64,000 nucleotides of DNA from Alphaproteobacteria bacterium (GTDB taxonomy: Bacteria; Pseudomonadota; Alphaproteobacteria; MPNO01; UBA830), in assembly GCA_964291215.2 (NCBI GenBank), contig OZ219790.1, forward strand, positions 1,792,001 to 1,856,000. Reading direction: 5' to 3'. This document shows, piece after piece, positions 32,274 to 55,717 of the stretch (its first letter is position 1; the number at the start of each line of letters is the position of its first letter). The notes under the pieces are model-generated. The model did not search any database and was not told the DNA's origin. It worked only from the letters and a program-made list of their open reading frames with translations. Both the position numbers and the translations under genes were made by a program.

Positions 32274-32493
32274 AACTCGTCACCTCGTCCCGGGCAGTTC
32301 TTTTTTCGGTCCGCGGTTGCCAGCCGCGCCGGTCGAAATCTCCCGCACAGAAGTCTGCACGGTCGGAAATCTCCATGATTCCGGCCAGCGCCGGGCGGAG
32401 ATACTGCTCGATACTATCGAAACGCGTAGCGTCAGGCCGATCCTGTTGGCAGAATTGTCGATTCCATCATCCTGCTGCTCTCCCGGGCATCTT

Positions 32494-33564
32494 TAAGGTC
32501 CGTAACGAAATAATCGCGTCTGTATTGGGTGTTGGCAAGAGTCCCCCGTTCCGCTCGCTCTGGAATTTTTCGCGCCTGATGTCGAGGGCCTTTATCTCGG
32601 CATCCTTGATGCCCTTCGGACAGGTGTTTTCGTCGACATCGCAATAGACCTTGAGGCCGGCTTCGGTGGTGGTTGCTCTGATCAGGCTGGCGATGGCGGC
32701 GAGGCTGCGCAGCGGCTTGCCGCGCCAGTTCTGGCTGATGAACGAGAACAGGCGATGTTCGATTCCATTTGCTGGTGCCGGGCGGCAGGTGGCAGATCAT
32801 GATCTCGAGCTCCCTGGCGAGCTTCTGCAGTTCGACCTTCCACAGCCGGGCCCCGTTCAACCCGCCGCAGTCGGCGGTGATCAGCAGCCGCCCCGGGGCA
32901 GCGCTCGCGCCCGAGGCGCCGCCACCGGGTGCTTTCCACCGCAAACGCCGCGGTGTCATGGCTGATGCCGACCCGGCCGATGTTGTGGGCCATGTCCCCG
33001 TAGGGGGCCGCCTTGCCGAACTCCTTGTCCGCGAAGTCATGTACCTTCACCTCCTTGGGCCGGCCCTTCGGCCGCCACTCGCGGCCGGCGTTCTTGAAAT
33101 CGCCGATCAGCTCCTTCTTCCTGGTGTCGATGACCGGCTCTCCGGCCGCAAGAAACTCCGCAACCTGCCCGTTTATGTGGCCGAACTGCCCGTCCCGGGT
33201 GCACGCCGCCTTCGCGGGTCTTCGCGTTGGCGTATAGCCAAGCTCGCCCAGAAGCCGCCCGACAAGCGACGCCGAACAACCCTGCTCCTCAAGACACTTC
33301 GCAAGATGCCGGGTGCTCTTCGAAACCCACAGCAGAGACCGTTCCGGGTCGCCCCGCATTGCCGGTGCAACCAGCGCCTCAAGCAAACCCGGCTGACGCT
33401 CCGTCGCCGGCTTGCGCCCGCCGCCCGCGCGGCCGGACCCGGTCCGGCGCCGGCGATGTTGCTTCGTCAATCTCCTTCAGACCCCGTCCAATCGTCGACC
33501 GCGCAACAGTGATTGAGTTAGTCACTATCAGCGTCGTATCTGTCAGACCGACGCGGACCTCTTA
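32494..33564 (-). mobile_element. Degenerate ISAzo13-family element
   Basis: Frameshifted motifs GGGRK, RGDPE..LLWVSKS, DTRKKELIGDFKNAG, VHDF, HDTAAFAV, LLITADCGG, HLPPGTSKWN; ends TAAGGTCCG / TAAGAGGTCCG. Confidence 0.85.
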
Positions 33565-35734
33565 CATTTTCAGTTGCTTGTTGAACCCTTCCGGGCCATC
33601 TTTCTGCTTCACGACTTCTACTTCAGCCATCATATCGCCAGTCTTTTCCACCACTATAATTGTGTCGGCGTCGTTCTCGAAAACTCCGGAGCCGCGAGTA
33701 GCACCGCGCCCACCGGAGCTTTCCTTTTTCGTATGAGCCACGATCATTATAGCTGATTTCAGTTCGTCGCGCAAGTAGCCCGCCATTTCCGTCAACAGAC
33801 TGGCCGTCTCGCTCGCATTTTCGTTATGTCCTGATATAGCTCTCCCTAGAGTATCCACAACAACAAGGGTATAGCGTTCGTCAAGATCAAGTAGACTGTC
33901 AACGAGCTCATTTACTTTCTCCTCCGGTGTACTGATCCGCGGTACAGAATCAACGTATCTACTCACCCCTTGTTGGGTTCTGATTGGCCGTAGTGCTCGT
34001 TGATGATGTCTGCGGCTTTTCCGTCGAGGGCGATCTGGGTGGCGACGAGTGGGTTGTAGCCGAGTGCCGCCATGGAGGTGAGGTAGCTTGAGCCCCGGCA
34101 CCATGCTTTTGCGTGGAGCGGAAGCATCCGGACACCTTGACCTTTGCCATCCTGATTTTCTGTTCTCCGGCATTGTTGGTGAAGCTGACGTTGGGGTCGT
34201 CTGTGAAGCGCAGGTTTTCGTGTTTCACGAGACGTTCGTGCAGGTTGTGCGCGTCGGACTTGCGTCCACGTTTTCCTTTCGGCGGCGGCGGGATGTCGGG
34301 CAGTTCCCTGGCGCCCTGATGGTGCGGTAGCGCTTGCGCACGGCCCGGAGGTCGGCCTCGTTCAGGGTCTTGGATGCGCTCTTGTTGACCTTGTGGCAGA
34401 CCTCGCGGAGCAGGCTCTTCATAAGTCGCGCGGTAGCCTCGACGACAAAGGTCAGTTCGCGCAGCAGGTGGCTGCCGCACAGCTGGTGGCTACACTGGTC
34501 ATAGCCCATGTACGAGGCCCAGCAGTCGTGGACCAGGACGCCCTTGTAACACGGGCCGATCTCTTGCCCGCGCTTGCGGTGCGGGAACTTGCACGTCAGG
34601 GTCCCACGACATGGAGCCACTTGCTATTGATCCGAAATCATCGACATCGGGCGTTGCAGGAGGTGCGCCACGGCGGCCTCCTCCCATGACGCATCGTGAA
34701 AGCATAGCCGAGGCCTCGGAGAGCTTGATGCCGGAGATCGCCTGCACGAACGCGACGGCACGGCGCAGGGATAGCATCTGGGCGACCAGCAGGTTGATGA
34801 CGAGGGCCTGGATGCCGATGCCGTACTGCACAGGATGTTTTCGGGGAACCGGCCCTTGGTTCGGGCCTTGCACTTCGGGCATTCCTTGATCTCGGCGCGG
34901 CGCTCGACGACCTCGAACACGATGTCGTGCGGCGCTCCCGATCGACGGGGCCGTCGATGTCGGCGCCGCAGGCGTCGCAGGCCGCGACCGTTTCCTCGAC
35001 GATGGTCTTGCGCAGGTTGTCGCCCATCTGCCGGTTCGGTTTCGGGCCCTTGCCGTTGCTCCCGGCACGCTCTTGTCCGTCTGTGACGGCGGCAGACCGG
35101 AGTTCCGGCTCGTGCGTGGTCTTCTCCAGAAGGACGACGATGAGGATGTCGAGCAGGATGACGAAGACGCGGATCACGGCCTCTTTCGGCACCTTGCCGG
35201 CAGCGCCGCGATCTTGGCCGCTTCGAACTCCTCGCGCGCCGCCCGTCGCCATCACCCGGCCTTGCGCTTCATCAGCGCGCCGCTTCCGAGATGCGTTTTC
35301 ACATACAGATCATGCGGGGGCCGGAGCCCCGGAAGCAGCTGGCACAGCCCGCTCGTCGCCTTCGATCCAAAGTAGCCCACTGGCGGTCCCCGTCGTTCTC
35401 GATTACCACCACTAAACGAATCGGCCTGCAGTGTCAAATCTCCACGAAAACCCGTTCGTTGCTCTACCCCGACATCAAGCCGGAACCAGGGGGTGAGCAG
35501 TTACGAATCAACAAACAAAATATTTTTCGACTCTACCTTAGCCCCGTGGTGTCGCTCCCAGGCAAGCAAGCGTTTCCCCATACCTGATCTACCTTCACCG
35601 AGCATGTACACCACAGGTCCGGTCTCGGACGTAGCCCACACATGGCCGGACTTGCGGATTACGCAACCTGATGCCACGGGCAGAGCCATATCCAAAGCTA
35701 TGAAACTCTTGTACGAACTGTACGAGCCAGTCAA
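33565..35734 (-). pseudogene. Lower-GC RepA/AAA_25-type helicase-ATPase fragment interrupted by IS66 copy 2
   Basis: Removing 33955-35504 plus one target repeat gives an open frame ...GSYSSYKSF (Walker A-like)...NILFVDSVPR...LVVVDTL (Walker B)...IVAHTKK...RGSG...KQKDG. Confidence 0.75.
33955..35504 (-). mobile_element. Degenerate IS66-family element, copy 2 (no intron), with 8-bp target duplication
   Basis: Same termini as copy 1; GAATCAAC at 33947-33954 and 35505-35512; retains VLVHDCWASY and HQLCGSHLLREL. Confidence 0.93.
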
Positions 35735-35904
35735 CTTCCGCTCCACGCAAAAGCATGGTGCCGGGGCTCAAGCTACCTCACCTCCATGGCCGCACTCGGC
35801 TACAATCATCACGTCGCAACCCAGATCGCCCTCGACGGAAAAGCCGCAGACATCATCAACGAGCACTACGACCAATCAGAACCCAACTAGGGGTGAGTAG
35901 ATAC
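35735..35904 (+). mobile_element. Isolated right-end fragment of the IS66-like element
   Basis: Matches the last ~170 bp of the other copies, ending GGGGTGAGTAGATAC. Confidence 0.88.
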
Positions 35905-36011
35905 TACAACAGAACAAAAATGGAATCCAGATTCCGCCGATAAATCCCGCAACCCCTCTTGAACCGAGCCGGATTGGTCACTATATTCTTTTTATTGGGA
36001 AGGGGCGATAG

Positions 36012-36991
36012 ATGACGCAGAAGGCACCCCGAAAGAGCCACCGCAAGGGGATCACGCTGACCCAGCTCTTCAAGAGGTTCCCGGACGACGAGACCGCAAC
36101 GGCATGGGTCGCGGGCATCCGCTGGCCGGGCGGGGCGACCTGCCCACATTGCGGCAGCGACCGGATCACCCATCCGGTGAAGCACAAGACGATGACCCAT
36201 CGCTGCAAGGCCTGCCGCAAGTGGTTCTCGGTCCGCACCGGAACCTGCATGGAGTCCTCGAAGCTCGGGCTGCAGGTCTGGGTGATCGCGGTCTACCTGC
36301 TGAACACCGGGCTCAAGGGACAGGCGTCCATGAAACTGCATCGCGACCTAGGCGTGACGCAGAAGACGGCATGGCACTTGGCGCACCGTATCCGCGAGGC
36401 ATGGGAAGACAACGGCGGGAACCTGTTTGCCGGGCCGGTGGAAGCGGATGAGACCTAGACATTGGCGGGAAGCGTAAAAACAAGTCCAACGCCGAGCGCA
36501 AGGTCGCGACGGGGCGCGGCACGGTGGACATGGAAGCCGTGGTCGGCACGAAGGACCGGGAGACCAACGAGGTCCGCGCCCGCCATGTCGCCGAGACCGG
36601 TATTCCTCATGTCGCCGGGTTCGTGGCGGAACAGACCAAGCCGGGCGCGAAGGTCTACACCGATGACGCCAAGGTGTACGGTGCGCTCGATCCGTGGTTC
36701 GACAGGGAGAGTGTCAATCACTCCGTCTCCGAATTCGTCCGGGGCATGGCTCACACGAACGGGATGGAATCCTTCTGGGCGATGGTGAAGCGCGGCTATC
36801 AGGGCACCTACCACAAGATGAACCCCAAGCACCTGCAACGCTATGTCGGGGAGTTCTCCGGTCGACACAACATCCGGCCTGCCGACACGCTGGAGCAGAT
36901 GGCCGCGACCGTCGCCGGGCTAGTCGGGAAGCGGCTGCGGTATCGCGACCTGATCGCCGACAACGGGCTGGAGTCGGGAGCGCGGTCATGA
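36012..36991 (+). pseudogene. IS1595-family transposase with one frameshift/stop near 36456
   Basis: RWPGGATCPHCG, CKACRK, GPVEADET then IGGKRK, VYTDD, VNHS, HTNGMESFW, KHLQRY. Confidence 0.9.
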
Positions 36992-37010
36992 AACGGGATG
37001 GAGATGACGA

Positions 37011-37391
37011 ATGACCGTTGAAGATGTTCTTGCCCGAGTAAAGCCGTTGGCCGTCGAGTACTATCGCCTGACGGGGAAACCGCTCGGTGTCACCTCAGAA
37101 ATAGGTGAATTTGAAGTTGCTCGCCTATTGGAACTGGAACTCGAACCAGCGAGAAATCCCGGTTATGACGCAAAGGACCCTGCGGGCCGACGATACCAAA
37201 TCATAGCTCGCTCGCTGGATGACCCGTTGCGCAAGGGGTCGGAAAAAACCGGCGCGCTGAACGATAAAGAGTGGGACGCAGCTCTTTTGGCTCTCATGGA
37301 CCGGCAGTTTACGGTGTTAGAGATTTGGGAAGCGGATAGGGCTGCTGTAGACGGTGAGTTGAACCGACCAGGTAGCAAGGCGCGGATGTGA
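37011..37391 (+). CDS. IS1595 passenger, PD-(D/E)XK nuclease-like hypothetical protein; probably frameshifted near the C-terminus
   Basis: LTGKPLGVTSEIGE, NPGYDA, YQIIAR; a plausible continuation LSLSKFKQIG lies in another frame. Confidence 0.5.
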   Translation: MTVEDVLARVKPLAVEYYRLTGKPLGVTSEIGEFEVARLLELELEPARNPGYDAKDPAGRRYQIIARSLDDPLRKGSEKTGALNDKEWDAALLALMDRQFTVLEIWEADRAAVDGELNRPGSKARM

Positions 37392-37459
37392 CGGCAACTG
37401 TCCCTGTCGAAGTTCAAGCAAATCGGTCATTTGCGCTATTCTTCCGCAGATAGTGCATC

Positions 37460-37615
37460 ATGACCGACAATCCCAAGCGCGGCCCCGGCCGTCCGGTGGA
37501 GAAGCCTTTGCCGAAACCTATCGACGATTCCCCGGAAAATGTGATGCGGGCGATCCTCTCGACACCACCGAAGAAGGACAAGGACTGGCGGTATCTGCGG
37601 GAGGCGGACGACTAG
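37460..37615 (+). CDS. Small 51-aa IS1595-associated protein (absent from ORF track)
   Basis: MTDNPKRGPGRPVEKPLPKPIDDSPENVMRAILSTPPKKDKDWRYL, just inside the element end. Confidence 0.6.
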   Translation: MTDNPKRGPGRPVEKPLPKPIDDSPENVMRAILSTPPKKDKDWRYLREADD

Positions 37616-37657
37616 TCGCCCGCTTGGTCACTTAGATATATAATCCCCAAAATTTGC

Positions 37658-37720
37658 GCAACATCCGGCCCTCATCTCCGTTCGGGCTACGCACTCACTG
37701 CGATGAGGGCCGGGTGTTGC
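37658..37720. repeat. 19-bp inverted repeat hairpin
   Basis: GCAACATCCGGCCCTCATC ... GATGAGGGCCGGGTGTTGC (one mismatch), 25-nt loop. Confidence 0.75.
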
Positions 37721-37743
37721 ACTTCAGACTGGAAGTGAGGTCT

Positions 37744-37829
37744 TGTCAATCAAATGATTGACATACAGGTCTTGAATGTCAATTAATTAATTGACGTTGC
37801 GTTTTATGCCGCATATGAATATATTGACA
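37744..37829. promoter_or_regulatory. Operator-like palindromes upstream of mobile mystery protein A
   Basis: TGTCAATCAAATGATTGACA (37744), TGTCAATTAATTAATTGACG (37777), third half-site ATTGACA at 37823. Confidence 0.65.
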
Positions 37830-37861
37830 AATAGAATGTGATGTTAAGAAATTGATATACG

Positions 37862-38326
37862 ATGAGTGTTCGAAAGACCATAGAACGACAACACCGGTTG
37901 ATCGTGGATCGTGCAGCCTCTCAGCTTTCTGATGTCCAAACGCCATCGGAAGGCTGGGTCTTCACTGTACGCAAAGCGCTGGGCATGTCCGGAGCACAGC
38001 TTGCGCGCCGTCTCGGTGTGACACGTGCTGCCGTTTCGCAAACTGAAAAGAACGAGGTAAGCGGCAGTGTAACGCTCAAGCACATGCAAAATGTCGCCGA
38101 AGCGCTTGGCTGCCGGTTTGTCTGCGCCATCGTGCCCGAAGGTCGCATTGAAGATGTGATCCGAAATCAGGCCGAGCGCAAGGCAACCAAACTTGTCCGC
38201 CGTGCAAGTGGATACATGGCGTTGGAAAGCCAGTCCCTTCCACCTGAAAAACTCAAAGAGGAGATCGTACGCCTGCGTGATGATCTGATGCGCGAAATGC
38301 CTTCCGATTTCTGGGAGGGCAAATGA
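37862..38326 (+). CDS. Mobile mystery protein A (Xre-type HTH)
   Basis: GWVFTVRKALGMSGAQLARRLGV, MALESQ; overlaps the downstream Fic gene. Confidence 0.88.
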   Translation: MSVRKTIERQHRLIVDRAASQLSDVQTPSEGWVFTVRKALGMSGAQLARRLGVTRAAVSQTEKNEVSGSVTLKHMQNVAEALGCRFVCAIVPEGRIEDVIRNQAERKATKLVRRASGYMALESQSLPPEKLKEEIVRLRDDLMREMPSDFWEGK

Positions 38327-38943
38327 TCAATGACGACGCACCGGAAGATGCAACACCCCTTGATCCCGACGAGCGTGAAGGTCTCAAGCACCAACACATC
38401 ATCACACGTGGTGAACTAGATGAGTTGGAGCAGGCCAATATTCAGACCGGCCTGCAATGGGTATCGAGGACTCGCCAGCGCGACATCTTGAATGATGAGT
38501 TCTTGCGCACGCTCCACAAACGTTTGTTTGGAGAGGTATGGGATTGGGCCGGGACCTATCGCCAGACAGAAAAGAATATCGGCATCGATCCGCTTCATAT
38601 CGGCGCAGAACTCCGCACGCTGGTCGATAATGCGCGCTACTGGGCCGAACATGGTACCTATCCGCCGCTCGAATCTGCCGCGCGCTTTCACCACCGCATG
38701 GTGCAGATACATCCATTCCCCAATGGCAATGGCCGCCATGCGCGCATCGCGGCAGACCTCTATCTGGAGCGACATTTCGGGCATGACGAAATCGAGTGGA
38801 CGCATGGTTTTGATCTAAAGGCGGACAATGAGCGCCGCAGCGCCTATATCGCCGCACTGCGCGCGGCTGACGGCGGAGACTATGCGCCTCTCTTGGCATT
38901 CGTGGACGCGGGGCAGGCGGATCAGCCGAGCGATCCGGCCTGA
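38323..38943 (+). CDS. Mobile mystery protein B (Fic domain)
   Basis: ATPLDPDEREGL, VWDWAG, canonical HPFPNGNGRHAR. Confidence 0.9.
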   Translation: MINDDAPEDATPLDPDEREGLKHQHIITRGELDELEQANIQTGLQWVSRTRQRDILNDEFLRTLHKRLFGEVWDWAGTYRQTEKNIGIDPLHIGAELRTLVDNARYWAEHGTYPPLESAARFHHRMVQIHPFPNGNGRHARIAADLYLERHFGHDEIEWTHGFDLKADNERRSAYIAALRAADGGDYAPLLAFVDAGQADQPSDPA

Positions 38944-38949
38944 TCGTTC

Positions 38950-39263
38950 CGATTGGTTTTTGTCCAATTTCCGGGCATCCGGGCGTGCTCTATGGCTGCG
39001 TCACCAAGCCGCGATTTTCGCGTCTTGGCCCATATGGGTGATTGAACTGAGCCGCGTTCCGCGGCGGTGGTTTTTCTGCGTCGGGTGATGTTCCTGGCTG
39101 AGTTCTTCGCGGTTGACAGGTCCTGGTTTGCGCCTTCAGCCGTTGCCATCTTTCTGTCGTGTCCTGACAATCGGTTGCGGATGCACCGGCGAGCACTGTT
39201 TCGCACGGTGTCGTCGCTGACCGATCGCACCGCAATGGAGACGACAGATGACGCCTTAGCGCC
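38950..39263 (-). mobile_element. Possible degraded IS terminal remnant
   Basis: Short similarity to the 3900-3940 region (GATTT..CGCGTCT..ATGGG); no clear ORF. Confidence 0.25.
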
Positions 39264-40710
39264 GTATCTACTCACCCCTAGTTGGGTTCTGATTGGTCGT
39301 AGTGCTCGTTGATGATGTCTGCGGCTTTTCCGTCGAGGGCGATCTGGGTGGCGACGAGTGGGTTGTAGCCGAGTGCGGCCATGGAGGTGAGGTAGCTTGA
39401 GCCCCATGCTTTTGCGTGGAGCGGAAGCATCCGGACACCTTGACCTTTGCCATCCTGATCTTCTGTTCTCCGGCATTGTTGGTGAAGCTGACATCGGGGT
39501 CGTCTGTGAAGCGCAGGTTTTCGTGTTTCACGAGACGTTCGTGCAGGTTGTGCGCGTTTGCGATGCGTTTTCCTTTCGGCGGCGGCGGGATGTCGGGCAG
39601 TTCCCTGGCGCCCTGATGGTGCGGTAGCGCCCGGCGTCGTTCAGGGTTTTGGATGCGCTCTTGTTGATCTTGTGGCAGACCTCGCGGAGTAGGCTCTTCA
39701 TCAGTCGCGCGGTAGCCTCGACGACAAAGGTCAGTTCGCGCAGCTGGTGGCTGCCGCTGGTGGCTACACTGCCATGTACGAGGCCCAGGACGCCCTTGTA
39801 GCACGGGCCGATCTCTTGCTTGCGGTGCGGGAACTTGCACGTCCCGACGACATGGAGCCACTTGCTGTTGATCCGAAATCGTCGACATCGGGCGTTGCAG
39901 GAGGTGCGCCACGGCGACCTCCTCCCATGACGCATCGTGAAAGCATGGCCGAGGCCTCGGAGAGCTTGATGCCGGAGATCGCCTGCACGAGCGCGACGGC
40001 GCAGGGACAGCATCCGGGCGACCAGCAGGTTGATGACGAGGGCCTGAATGCCGTACTGCACGGGATGTTGTCGGGGAACCGGCCCCGGGCCTTGCACTTC
40101 GGGCATTCCTCGGCGCGGCGCGACCTCGAACACGATGTCGTGCGGCGCTCCCGATCGACGGGGCCGTCAGCACCGCAGGCATCGCAGGCCGCGACCGTCT
40201 CCTCGACGATGATCTTGCGCAGGGTGTCGCCCATCTGCCGGTTCGGCTTCGGGCCCTTGCCGTTGCTCCCGGCACGCTCTTGTCCGTCTGTGACGGCGGC
40301 AGACCGGAGTTCCGGCTCGTGCGTGGTCTTCTCCAGAAGGACGACGATGATGATGTCGAGCAGGATGACGAGGACGCGGATGACGGCCTCTTCCGCCACC
40401 TTGCCGGCAGCGCCGCGGTCTTGGCCGCTTCGAACTCCTCGCGCGCCGCCCGTCGCCATCACCCGGCCTTGCGCTTCATCAGCGCGCCGCTTCCGAGATG
40501 CGTTTCCACATACAGATCATGCGGGGGCTGGAGCCTCGGAAGCAGCTGGCACAGCCCGCTCGTCGCCTTCGATCCAAAGTAGCCCACTGGCGGTCCCCGT
40601 CGTTCTCGATTACCACCACTAAACGAATCGGCCTGCAGTGTCAAATCTCCACGAAAACCCGTTCGTTACTCTACCCCGACATCAAGCCGGAACCAGGGGT
40701 GAGCAGTTAC
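39264..40710 (-). mobile_element. Degenerate IS66-family element, copy 3 (no intron)
   Basis: Same termini and near-identical internal sequence; flanks do not match each other. Confidence 0.92.
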
Positions 40711-41787: not shown

Positions 41788-42465
41788 ATGACAACCACCG
41801 CCATCGAATCCGCCCTTGCCCGAGTTCGCGACCGGATCGCCGACGCAGCGCGCACCGCAGGACGCAATCCGCGGGACGTGTCCCTGATTGCGGTTTCCAA
41901 GGCTCATCCGCAGACCAGCGCATGTTCCGCCCTGACGGCGGGCCACCGGACCTTCGGAGAGAACCGCGTGCAGGAGGCCGCTGCCAAATGGCCGGAACTC
42001 AGGCAGCGGTTCGCGGGCATCGATCTGCACCTGATAGGGCCGCTCCAGACCAACAAGGCTGCCGACGCCGTTGCGCTGTTCGACGTCATCCAGACCCTCG
42101 ACCGCGAAAGGCTGGCCCGCGCGCTGGCTCGGGAATTCGAGAGGCAGGACCGGGCGCCGGCGCTCTTCGTCCAAGTCAATACGGGAAAAGAAGGGCAGAA
42201 GGCCGGGGTCATTCCCGGCAGCGCGGACGCGTTCATCGCGCGATGCCGGGGCGAATACGGGCTGCCGATCGCCGGACTGATGTGCATTCCGCCGGTCCGG
42301 GACAATCCCGAACCCCATTTCGCCATGCTTGCCACCATCGCGGCCCGGAACTGCGTCAGCCGCCTGAGCATGGGCATGTCCGCCGACTTCGAGACCGCGG
42401 TCAGCCTTGGCGCTACCGAGGTGCGCGTGGGCACGGCGATATTCGGAGCACGGCCCGCGCCCTGA
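41788..42465 (+). CDS. yggS: YggS family PLP homeostasis protein
   Basis: LIAVSK, FGENRVQE, HLIGPLQTNK, GLMCIPP, LSMGMSAD, VRVGTAIFG. Confidence 0.95.
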   Translation: MTTTAIESALARVRDRIADAARTAGRNPRDVSLIAVSKAHPQTSACSALTAGHRTFGENRVQEAAAKWPELRQRFAGIDLHLIGPLQTNKAADAVALFDVIQTLDRERLARALAREFERQDRAPALFVQVNTGKEGQKAGVIPGSADAFIARCRGEYGLPIAGLMCIPPVRDNPEPHFAMLATIAARNCVSRLSMGMSADFETAVSLGATEVRVGTAIFGARPAP

Positions 42466-42646
42466 TCCGCTGCCCTCGGCACTGCCCCTTCCTCTGTATC
42501 CGAAAAACCCGACAGGAAAGACTGACCTCCGCCAACCAGCCAACGCCGGCGGACCGTCGCATTTCCCGCCGTCGGCGGACCCGATGCGGCACAGCAGCCA
42601 AAAAGGAGATAGAAAAGAAACCGGCGTGGCCGCCGCCGGAATCCGC

Positions 42647-44281
42647 TTACCGCCAAGCGTCGACCGATATCATACTGTTGTCTGCGCGCCGCCCCTCGAT
42701 GATGCGCCAGGCGCCCTGGGTCTCGCCGCCGGTTACAACGACATCGATCTCCGATTCCTGAAACAGCCTGACCATGTCGTCAGGAGCGGCCTTGAGGTTG
42801 CCTGCATAGGGTTCGACGCCGGCCACCGCCAGCGGCTTTACCAGGGTCTGGACCCACTGGTCGTTCCAGTAGTCCCGCGCCGGCAAAACCGCGTTTTCGG
42901 CGCACCACCGAATCAGCTTGTCCTTGGTGGCGAACCCTTTCTCGACGAAGCCCCGCGCGACGATGGGATCCATGATCATCAATGGCGCCTCGCGCGCCTC
43001 GCAGGCTGCGAAGACTCGCTTTATCTTGGACTGCCACTCGTCACGGGGCCCGAACCCCGACTGCGTATACCGCCCTCCCCGAAACACAGTCACGGCGCTT
43101 TCCGCCGCATCAAACCCGGCGCTCACATGCAGCGGCTCCCACGGGCTGCGCTCCTCGTTCTCGGCAAATGTCGCGCTGAAGGAATTGAGGTTGCCCAGTG
43201 AGCCCATGAAGGTGTCGCCGGGCACCGAACCACCCTGGAGATTCGTGCAGACGAGGTTCCAGGCGCGGCCGATGGTCGCGTTCGCGTGGTTCCAAGGGCC
43301 CAGCGCGCCGATGCCGCAATTCATGCCGATCTCGTGGCGAACCGGTCCGTTGACGACCGCGATGCCTGAGAACGATGTGGTGCTGCTCGAACGCGCGGTA
43401 ACGCCGCTCGACGCCATCGCAAGAAGAACCGGCAGGTACTCCGGCCGGCAACCCGCCATGACCGCGTTGACCGCGACCTTCTCGACCGTGAACTCCCAGA
43501 ATTCCCGGAATGCCGTCGGACGCAGCCGTCCCACGACCTCGTCGGGAGGGTGGCTGGTGCCGGCCACCATCTTCTCGACACGTTCCTCGATCGGGAGAAT
43601 GACGGGGAGGAAATCCGTCCAGTTGCTGTCGATGAAGAGCTGCCGGAGGTTGTCTTCGGTATCGGGTTCAAGGAGCCGTGGCATCGATCGTTCGAAGGAA
43701 ACGCCGGTTTCATCCTCGGCCGTCAGCGGACTCGTGAGCCCCTCGATCACTTCCTGCATGAAAGGGCGTTGGCTGACGGGGTCGGCCCCCTCGATATAGC
43801 CGCGCAGGTCCGAAGCGGACCGGTCGACCACGGGCTGCGGCACAAAGGCCTGGCGCGTGGTCGGCATGCCGTTGGCGAGGGCAACCGATCCCACAAGACG
43901 CGCAAAGATGTCCGTGTGGATGGCGACCGAGGGGATACCAGCTTCCTCGAGCGACATGGCGAGCCCGACGACCGTCGGGCTGCAGGTACTTCACAGGCCG
44001 ACCCCCAGGATCGCGGCGTCCCCGCGGGCGGCGACCCGCGCACGCATCTCGGGATCGTCGACCCAGCTTTCGCGCGGCCTGATGACCGTCGTCTCGACCA
44101 GCGGCAGGTTCTCGGCGAACCATGCCCGCAGCTGCTCCATGAACAGATCGGAGTTGTCGAACAGGCAGTCGACGAGACAGACGGTCTTGCCGTCGAGGCC
44201 CTGCAGGCGCGGCGCGAGGCGCTTGCCGGTAACCTTCGGCGGATAGCCCCGCGGATCATGCACGGTCAGCGCTGCGGTCAT
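42647..44281 (-). CDS. UGSC-family-like selenoprotein, 544 aa with Sec at UGA 43991-43993
   Basis: The ORFs ending at 43991 and starting at 43957 are in frame: ...LGVGL-UGA-STCSPTVV...; hairpin directly downstream; C-terminal part has WTDFLPVILP, TVEKVAVNAVMAGC, ANATIGRA, FAENEE. Confidence 0.82.
43962..43981 (-). promoter_or_regulatory. Putative bacterial SECIS hairpin
   Basis: mRNA UGA-AGUACCUGC-AGCCCGAC-GGUC-GUCGGGCU: perfect 8-bp stem, G-containing loop, stem starting 10 nt after UGA. Confidence 0.7.
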
Positions 44282-44409
44282 TTCCGAATCTCCCGAACGG
44301 GCGTTGCACTTGTCGGGCCCGGCGGCCAGCGGCACGCGCAGCCAAGCTTGCCTTGCCGAACCGTACCAGCAGCGAACGCACCGGACAACGCGACGGGCGC
44401 GCCTGCAGC

Positions 44410-44904
44410 TCAGCCGACGATCAGCCGGTCGCCGGGACGCCATCCCGCCAGGATTTCGCGAAGGTCGTGCAGCGCAAACGCGATGCACCCTTCGGTGGGA
44501 GGAAAGCCCTCGCCGGCGACATGAACGAAGATCGCGCTTCCGACCCCGCCGGCAACCGGGTCCATGTTGTAGTCGGTCACCGCCATCAGGTCATAGAGCC
44601 GGTCGTCGCGCCACAGGCGCTCGCAGCTCGCGGGGTAAGGCAGCGTCACCCTCCTGTTGTAGGCCGTGTCCGCCGGATCGTCGCACCAGCCCAGTGACGG
44701 GTCGAGTTCCGACACCGGCAGCATGGTGGCGGGCAGCCCGATCCGGTCCGGGCGATAGAAGACATCGACAAGACGCATCCCGCCTTCCGGGGTCGTGCCG
44801 TCGCCTTCCCGCTTGTTTCGCCGCACGCCTCCTCGGCCGAGAGCGCAGGAATATGCGGCGTCGCCACGCCGCGCGAGCCCTTCGGCCGAGACCACGAGAT
44901 TCAT
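44410..44904 (-). CDS. L,D-transpeptidase (YkuD-like) family protein
   Basis: CALGRGG, KREGDGTTP, WCDDP, GSAIFVH, TEGCIA. Confidence 0.88.
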   Translation of the reverse strand: MNLVVSAEGLARRGDAAYSCALGRGGVRRNKREGDGTTPEGGMRLVDVFYRPDRIGLPATMLPVSELDPSLGWCDDPADTAYNRRVTLPYPASCERLWRDDRLYDLMAVTDYNMDPVAGGVGSAIFVHVAGEGFPPTEGCIAFALHDLREILAGWRPGDRLIVG

Positions 44905-45051
44905 GACGCACCTTTCCGTTCGGGAGCCATTCGGGCAGAATCGACCCGGATCGGATGCTGCAGGCCCTGTTGAAACGGAACGCGATCCTACCAGATTATG
45001 TTGGGCCGGCAGCGGGCCAGGTGGCCGACACCATCGAAAGGCGGCTGCACG

Positions 45052-45741
45052 ATGTCCATCGTGAAGAAATTGCTCCTGGCCGATCACGACGATCTGCTTC
45101 GCGATTCGCTGCGCGACCAGTTCACGACGGACGGCGAATTCACGATCGAGGAAGCCGGCACGGGCGCCGACGCCCTGGCAGCGTGCAGTGCCGGCAAACA
45201 CGACCTTATCGTTCTTGCCACCGATCTGCCCGACATGGACGGTGTCGAGGTGTGCCGGCTGATGCGGCTTGAGGGGATCAGATGTCCAGTCATTATGCTC
45301 GCCGGACCCGACGGTCGCGGGATGACCGTGGCCTTGGAGGTTGGCGCGAACGATTGTATCTCCAGGCCATTCCACTTCGGTACGCTGTTGGCCAGAATCC
45401 GGGTGCAGCTCGACGAGCCCGAACGCAACGAGGATCCGGTCCTTACCGTCGGGCCGTACAGTTTCCGCCCCACTGCCAGAACCCTCGTCGGTCTCGAGGG
45501 AGACGGCGCCACGATCCGCCTGACCGAGAAGGAGGCGGCGATACTCGAATACCTGCTGCGGACGGAGCACAGGGTCGTCGACCGAACCGAGTTGCTGAGG
45601 GAGATCTGGCGGTACCGTTCCGGCGTGACCACCCATACGCTGGAAACTCACATCTATCTTCTGCGGCAAAAGATCGAGCAGGATCCCTCGAGGGCGGAGA
45701 TACTCCGCACTGTCTCCGGCGGCTACAGGCTGTTTCCGTAA
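45052..45741 (+). CDS. OmpR-family response regulator with atypical receiver
   Basis: LTEKEAAIL, THTLETHIYLLRQKIE winged helix; receiver reads LIVLATDLP at the usual Asp site. Confidence 0.88.
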   Translation: MSIVKKLLLADHDDLLRDSLRDQFTTDGEFTIEEAGTGADALAACSAGKHDLIVLATDLPDMDGVEVCRLMRLEGIRCPVIMLAGPDGRGMTVALEVGANDCISRPFHFGTLLARIRVQLDEPERNEDPVLTVGPYSFRPTARTLVGLEGDGATIRLTEKEAAILEYLLRTEHRVVDRTELLREIWRYRSGVTTHTLETHIYLLRQKIEQDPSRAEILRTVSGGYRLFP

Positions 45742-54125: not shown

Positions 54126-54761
54126 CTACGCCTGCGGTACGGCAACCCCGACCATGCAGTCGCGCGTCACGAGTTCGGCAAGCTGTTCAGCGGACCAGCC
54201 ATCGGTGCCGTCCGGCCGGATCGGCAGCACGAGATAGCGCATGTCCGCATTGGAGTCGTGGACCCTCACGCCGACGCTGTCCGGTATCTCGGTACCGAAC
54301 TCCCTGAGCACCGCGCGCGGCTCGATCACCGCCCTGCTGCGATAGCTCTTGGACTTGTACCAGTCCGGCGGCAGGCCAAGGATGGTGCGCGGATAACAGG
54401 AACAGAGCGTGCAGACGATCACGTTGTGGACATCCGCCGTGTTCTCGACGACGATCAGTTCGGTATCGCCCATCGTGAACCCCATCTCCTCGACCGTCGC
54501 CGTGCCATCCTCGAGCAGGCGCCGCTTGAAGTCCGGATCCGTCCAGGCGCGCGCGATGATCCTCGCCCCGTCGGCGGGGTCACGGCTGTCGAGGAACTCG
54601 AGGTTGCGCCGCACGTCCTCGGCGCGAACCACGCCCTTCTCGACCAGAATTTCCCTGATCGCTTCAGCCATCAACTCGTAATGTCCGGTCTCGTTCACAT
54701 CCGGCGTCGTCCCCGGATGGTCATGAGCGTGGTCATGTGCGCCACGATCATCCATTGTCAT
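54126..54761 (-). CDS. Cobalt-type nitrile hydratase alpha / thiocyanate hydrolase gamma-like subunit
   Basis: ARAWTDPDFK, VCTLCSCYP, PPDWYKS, DSNADMRYLVLP. Confidence 0.93.
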   Translation of the reverse strand: MTMDDRGAHDHAHDHPGTTPDVNETGHYELMAEAIREILVEKGVVRAEDVRRNLEFLDSRDPADGARIIARAWTDPDFKRRLLEDGTATVEEMGFTMGDTELIVVENTADVHNVIVCTLCSCYPRTILGLPPDWYKSKSYRSRAVIEPRAVLREFGTEIPDSVGVRVHDSNADMRYLVLPIRPDGTDGWSAEQLAELVTRDCMVGVAVPQA

Positions 54762-55053
54762 TCTCCTGATCTCCGGTTGCTTCCAGCCAGTGATCGTAGA
54801 TCTCGAGGTCGAGCGTATCGCCGGGCTGGCCCTCGTAATGGTCCCACAGGTCCGTCTGACGGAGGCGCACCCTGTAAAGCTCGCGCTCGGGAACGCCGTC
54901 AAAGCCGTAGGCCAGTTCTTCGGGGTTGCGGAAGCGGCCGCAATAGCGCTCGATCACGCCGGTCTTTCCCCTCACATAGAACGGCGTCCGCCGATGGCCC
55001 GGCGGATGGCTGGCCTTTATCCGGACCGTGTCGCCAATATTGAAAATCGTCAT
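54748..55053 (-). CDS. Nitrile hydratase beta C-terminal SH3-like subunit (thiocyanate hydrolase alpha-like)
   Basis: GHRRTPFYVRGKTG, NPEELAYG, LYRVRL, EIYDHWLE. Confidence 0.85.
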   Translation of the reverse strand: MTIFNIGDTVRIKASHPPGHRRTPFYVRGKTGVIERYCGRFRNPEELAYGFDGVPERELYRVRLRQTDLWDHYEGQPGDTLDLEIYDHWLEATGDQENDNG

Positions 55054-55358
55054 TGCGGGGCCTCCAGCCGGTCTCGGATAGTCTCCATGCGCCGTTCGAC
55101 CTCGGCGCGCGTGAGCAAGCCCTTTTCCTCAAGCAAGTTGATGATGGCCTCGGACCAGCGCTCGAAATAATCCTGCGCATAGACCTCGGGCGGAAGATCC
55201 TCAAGCGCGCGCCGCAACTCGTCGATGCGCATGGTGTCATCCTCGCGCAGCGCAGCGGCAATGGCGGTTATGGTCTTGGCCCACGGTCCGGCATCGTGCT
55301 CGCGGATCTCCATCGATCCAGCCTCCATGCCGCCCATGTCATGCTGGCGCTGGTTCAT
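55050..55358 (-). CDS. Nitrile hydratase beta N-terminal-like subunit (thiocyanate hydrolase beta-like)
   Basis: HDMGG, IDELRRALEDL, YFERW, LEEKGLL. Confidence 0.82.
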   Translation of the reverse strand: MNQRQHDMGGMEAGSMEIREHDAGPWAKTITAIAAALREDDTMRIDELRRALEDLPPEVYAQDYFERWSEAIINLLEEKGLLTRAEVERRMETIRDRLEAPQ

Positions 55359-55405
55359 GTCTCCTCCCGTGCACGCGACCATTCTGCGGTTCCCGACGGC
55401 CAAAT

Positions 55406-55717
55406 TCAACCGGTTCCCCGCCGCCGCCGCAATTCGGCAATCCGCGCTTCGACCTCCTCGACCGTCACGACGCCTTTCTCGACCAGCACATCATGGATTG
55501 CCTGCATGCCAAGCTCGAAATACCCCAGCGCGTGGTAGCGCTCGCGTCCGAGATCCTCTCGCGCGCGGCGCGTCTCGTGGAGGCTGACAAGGCCGGCGCC
55601 GCGTTCGCCGAGCACGCTGCGGAGCGCCGTGGACAGCTTGGCCCAGTCCGGAGTCTCCCGCTGCGTGAGCGGCACGGGTCCCCAGTCTTCGCCGCCGATA
55701 TCGTTCACCCTTTTCAT
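55406..55717 (-). CDS. Second nitrile hydratase beta N-terminal-like protein (possible cobalt-insertion accessory protein)
   Basis: NDIGG, HETRRAREDL, LGYFE, LVEKGVV; paralogous to the adjacent gene. Confidence 0.72.
   Translation of the reverse strand: MKRVNDIGGEDWGPVPLTQRETPDWAKLSTALRSVLGERGAGLVSLHETRRAREDLGRERYHALGYFELGMQAIHDVLVEKGVVTVEEVEARIAELRRRRGTG

Follow-up and report, generated by a model that had tools for sequence, protein, structure and literature searches.

We conclude that positions 42647..44281 encode, on the minus strand, a real and well-supported selenoprotein of 544 amino acids, a further member of the known UGSC/Unknown_1 fusion family and not the first of a new one. Comparison with related genes indicates that its conserved in-frame UGA is almost certainly decoded as selenocysteine by way of a hairpin located just downstream. 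All positions refer to the window, i.e. the whole 64,000-nucleotide stretch of DNA that was analyzed, unless another contig is named. Translation revealed a single frame running from 44281 to 42647, with a sole internal TGA at codon 97 (43991..43993, minus strand; context GVGL-U-STCS) and a TAA as the terminal stop. This agrees with a preliminary description of the DNA, which had read two apparent ORFs as one frame broken only by the TGA and had omitted the strand; a plus-strand reading of 42647-44281 was rejected, since the gene lies on the minus strand. A Shine-Dalgarno-like GGGAGA was located 7 nt upstream of the ATG (44289..44294, minus strand). Directly past the stop codon there was a GC-rich hairpin followed by a T-run that resembled an intrinsic terminator (42611..42639, minus strand), a consensus match only, with five such consensus sites found versus 1.8±1.7 in shuffled sequences.

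Related loci were sampled as the best 80 of 224 from the species collection, together with 20 from the source genome and its relatives. In three loci with two gene copies the more similar one was counted, and the other copies also had TGA. Among these loci, which are related by descent so that the counts overstate their independence, TGA occupied the aligned codon in 100/100, and in 91/91 distinct genes after removal of duplicates. The terminal stops of the same 100 loci varied (TGA 54, TAG 27, TAA 13, contig end 6). TAA or TAG at the internal site, which the preliminary description had counted against selenocysteine, was never found in the 91 genes. Its expectation that homologues would carry Cys at this position was borne out by TGC in the paralogues from loci L078, L079 and L086 and by Cys in homologues P0124, P0125, and P0245. 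Position 100 was Cys in 90/91 close homologues, and Cys100 (43982..43984, minus strand) is the likely resolving thiol of the UxxC motif, while Cys39 (44165..44167, minus strand) was invariant in the USTC-fusion subfamily (91/91) but varied in distant homologues. In distant full-length homologues, Cys was present at position 97 in 13/38 and at position 100 in 14/39; since many of them have no Cys at the motif, the wider family may not need a redox motif, and a non-redox chemistry under the control of this motif is possible.

An in-frame ATG found 12 codons past the UGA opens a 436-aa ORF that is listed in databases, and this ATG was present in only 56/91 genes. The best 120 database matches were all 406-444-aa pieces devoid of the region up to the UGA (first 100 residues), so the earlier suspicion that gene callers would split the gene proved correct. 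Since databases hold the subfamily mostly as such truncated 436-aa pieces, it falls into an annotation blind spot. The TGA and the hairpin were kept in contigs of three sequencing runs of one study, of which X1 was identical and is possibly the source assembly, whereas X2 and X3 differed from the gene at 15-16 places, with zero differences in the TGA or the hairpin. Since the contigs of three runs retain it, the TGA is no assembly error. In the structural model, the UGA mapped to the interior of a single predicted domain (between strand 3 and helix 3), and natural two-gene forms were either split at about residue 190 or carried the domains in separate genes. The source genome (99.3% complete) contained selA, selB, selD and tRNA-Sec (TCA), all above curated cut-offs, so that the search for selA, selB, selC and selD outlined in the preliminary description turned up the complete set. 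Nevertheless, selA was nearly universal in the order (59/61 genomes), and its co-occurrence with the gene therefore does not discriminate. Genes of the sel set were found within 12/80 loci.

The bacterial SECIS-type hairpin, AGCCCGAC-GGUC-GUCGGGCU, was located at 43981-43962 (43962..43981 on the minus strand), exactly as claimed for a stem-loop with a GGUC loop from 10 nt past the UGA. It is composed of an 8-bp stem and a GGUC loop at 43973-43970, and begins at +10 after the UGA, while the loop begins at +18 (spacing of 17 nt). The UGA plus 33 nt folded at -17.5 kcal/mol (z -2.7), a value reached by 4/200 shuffles. Longer fold windows were non-significant (z -0.45 for 67 nt, z -0.22 for 97 nt), and the stability of the hairpin alone is therefore modest evidence. 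The same geometry, i.e. a perfect 8-bp stem at +10 and a 4-nt loop opening with G, was found at 3 of the 152,115 genomic TGA triplets. Furthermore, of 114 conserved four-fold sites, the three with the lowest variability were situated in the hairpin (0, 0, and 0.09 bits versus a median of 1.23). The pair +15:+24, made up of two synonymous positions, was paired in 91/91 genes (GC 73, CG 16, AU 1, GU 1), and its double changes needed five steps on a FastTree tree that comprised 90 genes, a single short gene having been omitted. Covariation in the hairpin exceeded that in 500/500 shuffles and in all six slid controls; this did not hold for the number of pair types, and double changes were found in only 2/8 hairpin pairs. 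Taken together, the alignments indicate selection on the hairpin at the RNA level. The accessible text of a 2026 review (PMC13188914) gives bSECIS constraints of a 3-9 nt loop with G in its first two positions, a spacing of 16-37 nt, a stem of 4-16 bp and an MFE ≤ -7.5. The check for a bacterial SECIS proposed earlier came out positive, as the hairpin falls within this published model (4-nt GGUC loop, spacing 17, 8 bp, -17.5 kcal/mol). So did those of 83/91 genes, the other eight failing with a stem mismatch, and 0/3 TGC paralogues passed, these three being near-identical to one another. No Rfam family was found at 42000-45500 of the window.

As to the family, the Pfam UGSC model (PF24696) matched residues 7-160 with 90 bits against a gathering cut-off of 25, in line with the assignment made in the preliminary description. 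Together with the frame, this match also agrees with its reading of USTC in place of UGSC and of a Sec domain fused to a large domain. The UGSC equivalog model of NCBIfam (NF041046) scored 63 bits (E 2.9e-17), below its cut-off of 125. On these profile scores, the protein is a homologous subfamily of UGSC, whose motif is USTC versus UGSC in the named family, and not the NF041046 equivalog. The wider family comprised 4,792 representatives at E≤0.001. Several full-length homologues (P0187, P0200, P0222, P0231, P0233, P0254, and others) had a Ser/Thr-rich motif with no Cys or Sec and possibly form a non-redox branch.

The UGSC/Unknown_1 fusion had already been listed by Zhang & Gladyshev in 2008 (PMC2398784), and the portion of that work accessible to us describes the Pfam domain, the UxxC motif and the fused domain that are also found here. 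Two partial reads with GVGLUSTCSPTVVGL are present in its supplementary file 3. A by-eye comparison indicated that the AVN[AG]VMAGC stretch of its Fig. S1A corresponds to residues 270-278 and the aligned block to about residues 270-325. The fusion and the USTC variant are both contained in these 2008 supplements and are therefore not new; as to novelty, the preliminary description overreached. The Cys of Unknown_1 highlighted in 2008 (C278) is Ala in 79/90 close homologues of the protein studied here. According to the same source, UGSC proteins (255 sequences) ranked with the most abundant selenoproteins of ocean and freshwater metagenomes, and most marine selenoproteins are thiol oxidoreductases. 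In the available text of PMC1976440 and PMC13188914 the family is called functionally uncharacterized, and the accessible text of these three papers contained no functional study of UGSC and no link to TrxB.

The AlphaFold2 model, built with 139 sequences, had a pLDDT of 96.7 and a pTM of 0.94. Pfam, the model, VIA-align, and hhalign pointed to a UGSC domain at residues ~29-191 (43709..44197, minus strand) with a predicted flavodoxin/receiver-like alpha/beta sandwich. In the VIA comparison, the modeled Sec domain matched flavodoxin/receiver-like chains with Z of 8-10 (best Z 10.4, rmsd 3.9, 135 residues aligned), with U97 at the end of strand 3 and C100 opening the next helix. No thioredoxin- or peroxiredoxin-fold chain was present among the top 50 VIA matches of the whole model. 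The Sec domain is predicted to be flavodoxin-like, i.e. a parallel-type alpha/beta sandwich, and probably not thioredoxin-like, in contrast to the thioredoxin-like fold supposed for UGSC in the accessible part of the 2008 work (PMC2398784). The C-terminal part (residues 196-544, ~350 residues; 42650..43696, minus strand) contains Unknown_1 and was subjected to profile, structure and alignment searches. It matched no Pfam or NCBIfam model, and its pLDDT was 95.5 when folded alone. Its conserved polar residues are D223, E267, N272, S300, N311, N321, N334, R339, E374, E376 and W381. For the C-terminal part alone, Foldseek ranked class I fumarate hydratase first (E 5e-4, TM 0.22, rmsd 18). This match was rejected as a functional clue, since VIA left only a common 75-80-residue sandwich (Z 5.6-6.0) that was tied with OmpA-like and other folds. 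The conserved core (residues ~215-400) had no solved-fold match among the structural searches, and sequence searches of the PDB gave nothing useful.

The Sec domain showed a likeness to the PrdB/GrdB family (PF07355). When it was compared with 15 PF07355-family proteins using hhalign, the probabilities were 84% and 93% (E 7e-6 to 5e-7) with U/CxxC aligned, over a span of only 69-99 columns and with Pfam-defined PrdB-like proteins, not characterized enzymes, as the references. One receiver-domain sequence used as a control gave 0.5%. The segment aligned by profile consists of a strand, UxxC, a helix, GIP and a strand, and suggests that the Sec domain is distantly related to PrdB/GrdB-family proteins. 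According to the accessible text of PMC11229817, the substrate of proline reductase sits on a second subunit, where it is attacked by the Sec of PrdB. The fusion protein likely shares this logic of a Sec nucleophile and a substrate-holding partner. None of 38 family members matched PF07355 or PF09338 at E≤1, and, at the sensitivity used, no relationship was seen between the C-terminal part and the pyruvoyl proprotein family. Neither Pfam family was found in the source genome, the control genomes being blank too, and no PrdA/GrdE-like neighbor of the fusion gene was seen. As a separate observation, alphaproteobacterial PF07355-family (PrdB-like) genes (L122-L138) occurred in 13/151 genomes of the class; many have PV-U-PxC and several are fused to an additional C-terminal domain.

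The only strongly recurring neighbor of the fusion gene was a gene for a TrxB-like flavoprotein, adjacent and on the same strand in 52/79 loci and present anywhere at 55 of these loci, with L059 excluded from the count. No mention of this link was seen in the accessible part of PMC2398784. The CxxC motif was present in 48/48 partner proteins (CASC 43, CATC 5). Across 61 genomes, whose kinship limits their independence, the partner was found beside the fusion gene in 14/24 carrier genomes (10/24 without it) and in 0/37 non-carriers at E≤1e-50. A dedicated TrxB-like reductase was absent from searches of the source genome and of 25 other sampled genomes of its family; the source genome offered no more than a TrxB of 35% identity and two above-cut-off matches to thioredoxin domains. 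Against the TrxB model (TIGR01292) the partner scored 284 bits, below the cut-off of 343, but it shares the CA[S/T]C and GxGDSA motifs. The second Arg of the TrxB HRR motif is linked to NADPH binding. The housekeeping TrxB of the source genome has HRRDALR, whereas in the partners this residue was Gly in 32/40 and Arg in 0/40, which hints, at the sequence level, at an altered NADPH/NADH preference. A crude motif scan revealed no thioredoxin gene in the loci.

In the window, the fusion gene appears to stand alone at its locus, and a YkuD L,D-transpeptidase-like gene (44410-44910, minus strand) is situated upstream, at the place of the relatives' TrxB-like gene. The other neighbors, scanned in 16 cluster representatives and 49 more, were mixed catabolic and transport genes that revealed no substrate or consistent pathway. 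In two relatives, a CPTC module is fused ahead of Unknown_1, and UGSC is encoded by a separate gene with a TGA that comes next. Loci L078, L079 and L086 hold a TGC (CSNC) two-gene paralogue divergent from the Sec fusion gene, with a TrxB-like gene downstream, and represent a natural Sec/Cys pair within one locus. Two Sec fusion copies, each with TGA and hairpin, were present in loci L033, L070, L094, L098, L099, and L059.

By analogy with PrdB/GrdB, we favor, with a probability of roughly 0.55, the view that the fusion protein is a selenium-dependent reductase of a small molecule that is recycled by a reductant. The C-terminal domain would bind and orient the substrate, which the Sec97 selenolate would attack, and the resulting adduct would be resolved by Cys100 to yield a selenenyl-sulfide. 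Electrons from NAD(P)H would then pass via the CASC-type TrxB-like flavoprotein, directly or through thioredoxin, to re-reduce the selenenyl-sulfide. As no dedicated reductase was found in the source genome, the housekeeping pair of TrxB and thioredoxin would have to take over this step. More tentatively, one may think of a widespread two-protein selenium reductase in which the TrxB-like flavoprotein, perhaps using NADH, reduces the PrdB-related UxxC domain directly, without thioredoxin, and this domain brings the selenolate into the active site of a second domain whose fold is undescribed. The reaction would be one for which soil and aquatic bacteria have no assigned enzyme so far. The USTC-fusion subfamily offers the easiest test system for UGSC, with both domains in one chain, a co-encoded electron donor and natural Cys paralogues whose expression needs no recoding, and thus makes a long-open functional question testable.

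Other explanations were weighed against the small-molecule reductase. One of them, which we regard as unlikely, accepts the selenoprotein as real but assigns a non-redox role (lyase, hydrolase or binding) to the C-terminal domain, with the UxxC motif and the linked reductase acting as a redox switch for activation or repair only. The many distant full-length homologues devoid of both Cys, the concentration of conserved polar residues in the C-terminal part and the receiver and other regulatory domains among the nearest solved folds of the N-terminal domain fit such a role, yet Sec is kept in 91/91 close homologues, a dedicated reductase tracks the gene, and in the alignments the motif coincides with the catalytic Sec region of PrdB/GrdB proteins. 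Slightly less probable still is a Sec peroxidase or protein-repair reductase acting on peroxides, sulfoxides, or oxidized thiols in general oxidative-stress defense. The absence of a thioredoxin or peroxiredoxin fold from the top 50 structural matches, the large conserved extra domain and the mostly catabolic or transport neighbors argue against this function, in spite of the AhpF-like score of the TrxB-like partner and the prevalence of thiol oxidoreductases among marine selenoproteins noted in the accessible text of PMC2398784. AhpD-like genes do lie downstream in 4/79 loci, but all four loci are part of one clade.

The two remaining readings seem much less plausible. A true equivalent of glycine/proline reductase protein B, which would cleave a C-N bond in an amino acid or amine and in which the C-terminal domain would take the place of the pyruvoyl subunit, is very improbable. 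The profile similarity around Sec and the attack of the PrdB Sec on a substrate on a second subunit in Prd (PMC11229817, accessible part) speak for it, but 0/38 members matched PF07355 or PF09338 at E≤1, the C-terminal part has no conserved Cys able to yield a pyruvoyl group, and both families were missing from the source genome, as they were from the control genomes. Least probable of all is a UGA that acts as a real stop, whether the cause is a pair of genes, a pseudogene or an error in sequencing. Although the ATG 12 codons downstream and the 436-aa ORF in databases would agree with this, that ATG is kept in only 56/91 genes, the site is never TAA or TAG in 91 genes, and the stop would fall mid-domain. 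Moreover, there are homologues with TGC, covariation is seen in the hairpin, and the TGA is retained in independent contigs.

Two other likely selenoproteins were noticed in the source genome: (i) a DsbA-like protein with U-PWC (G000:C1:1608989, plus strand; L143), for which Pfam DSBA gave 112 bits read through, and (ii) an AhpC/TSA-like protein with U-RSC (G000:C1:2369650, plus strand; L144) and a 7-bp hairpin whose loop is likewise GGUC. The Sec genes are located at G000:C2:1816652-1820075 and C2:1213062 and include a selA-selB-selC cluster, with about 25 nt between the stop codon of selB and selC. SelD occurs as an Ndh-SelD fusion of the Cys type, and no internal stop interrupts the match to formate dehydrogenase alpha. 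Elsewhere in the window, positions 32400-40600 hold repeated, frameshifted pieces that we take to be transposase-like, with a presumed Fic/antitoxin-like pair at 37862-38943. A cluster at 54126-55717 (minus strand) with a CTLCSC motif presumably resembles nitrile hydratase/thiocyanate hydrolase subunits.
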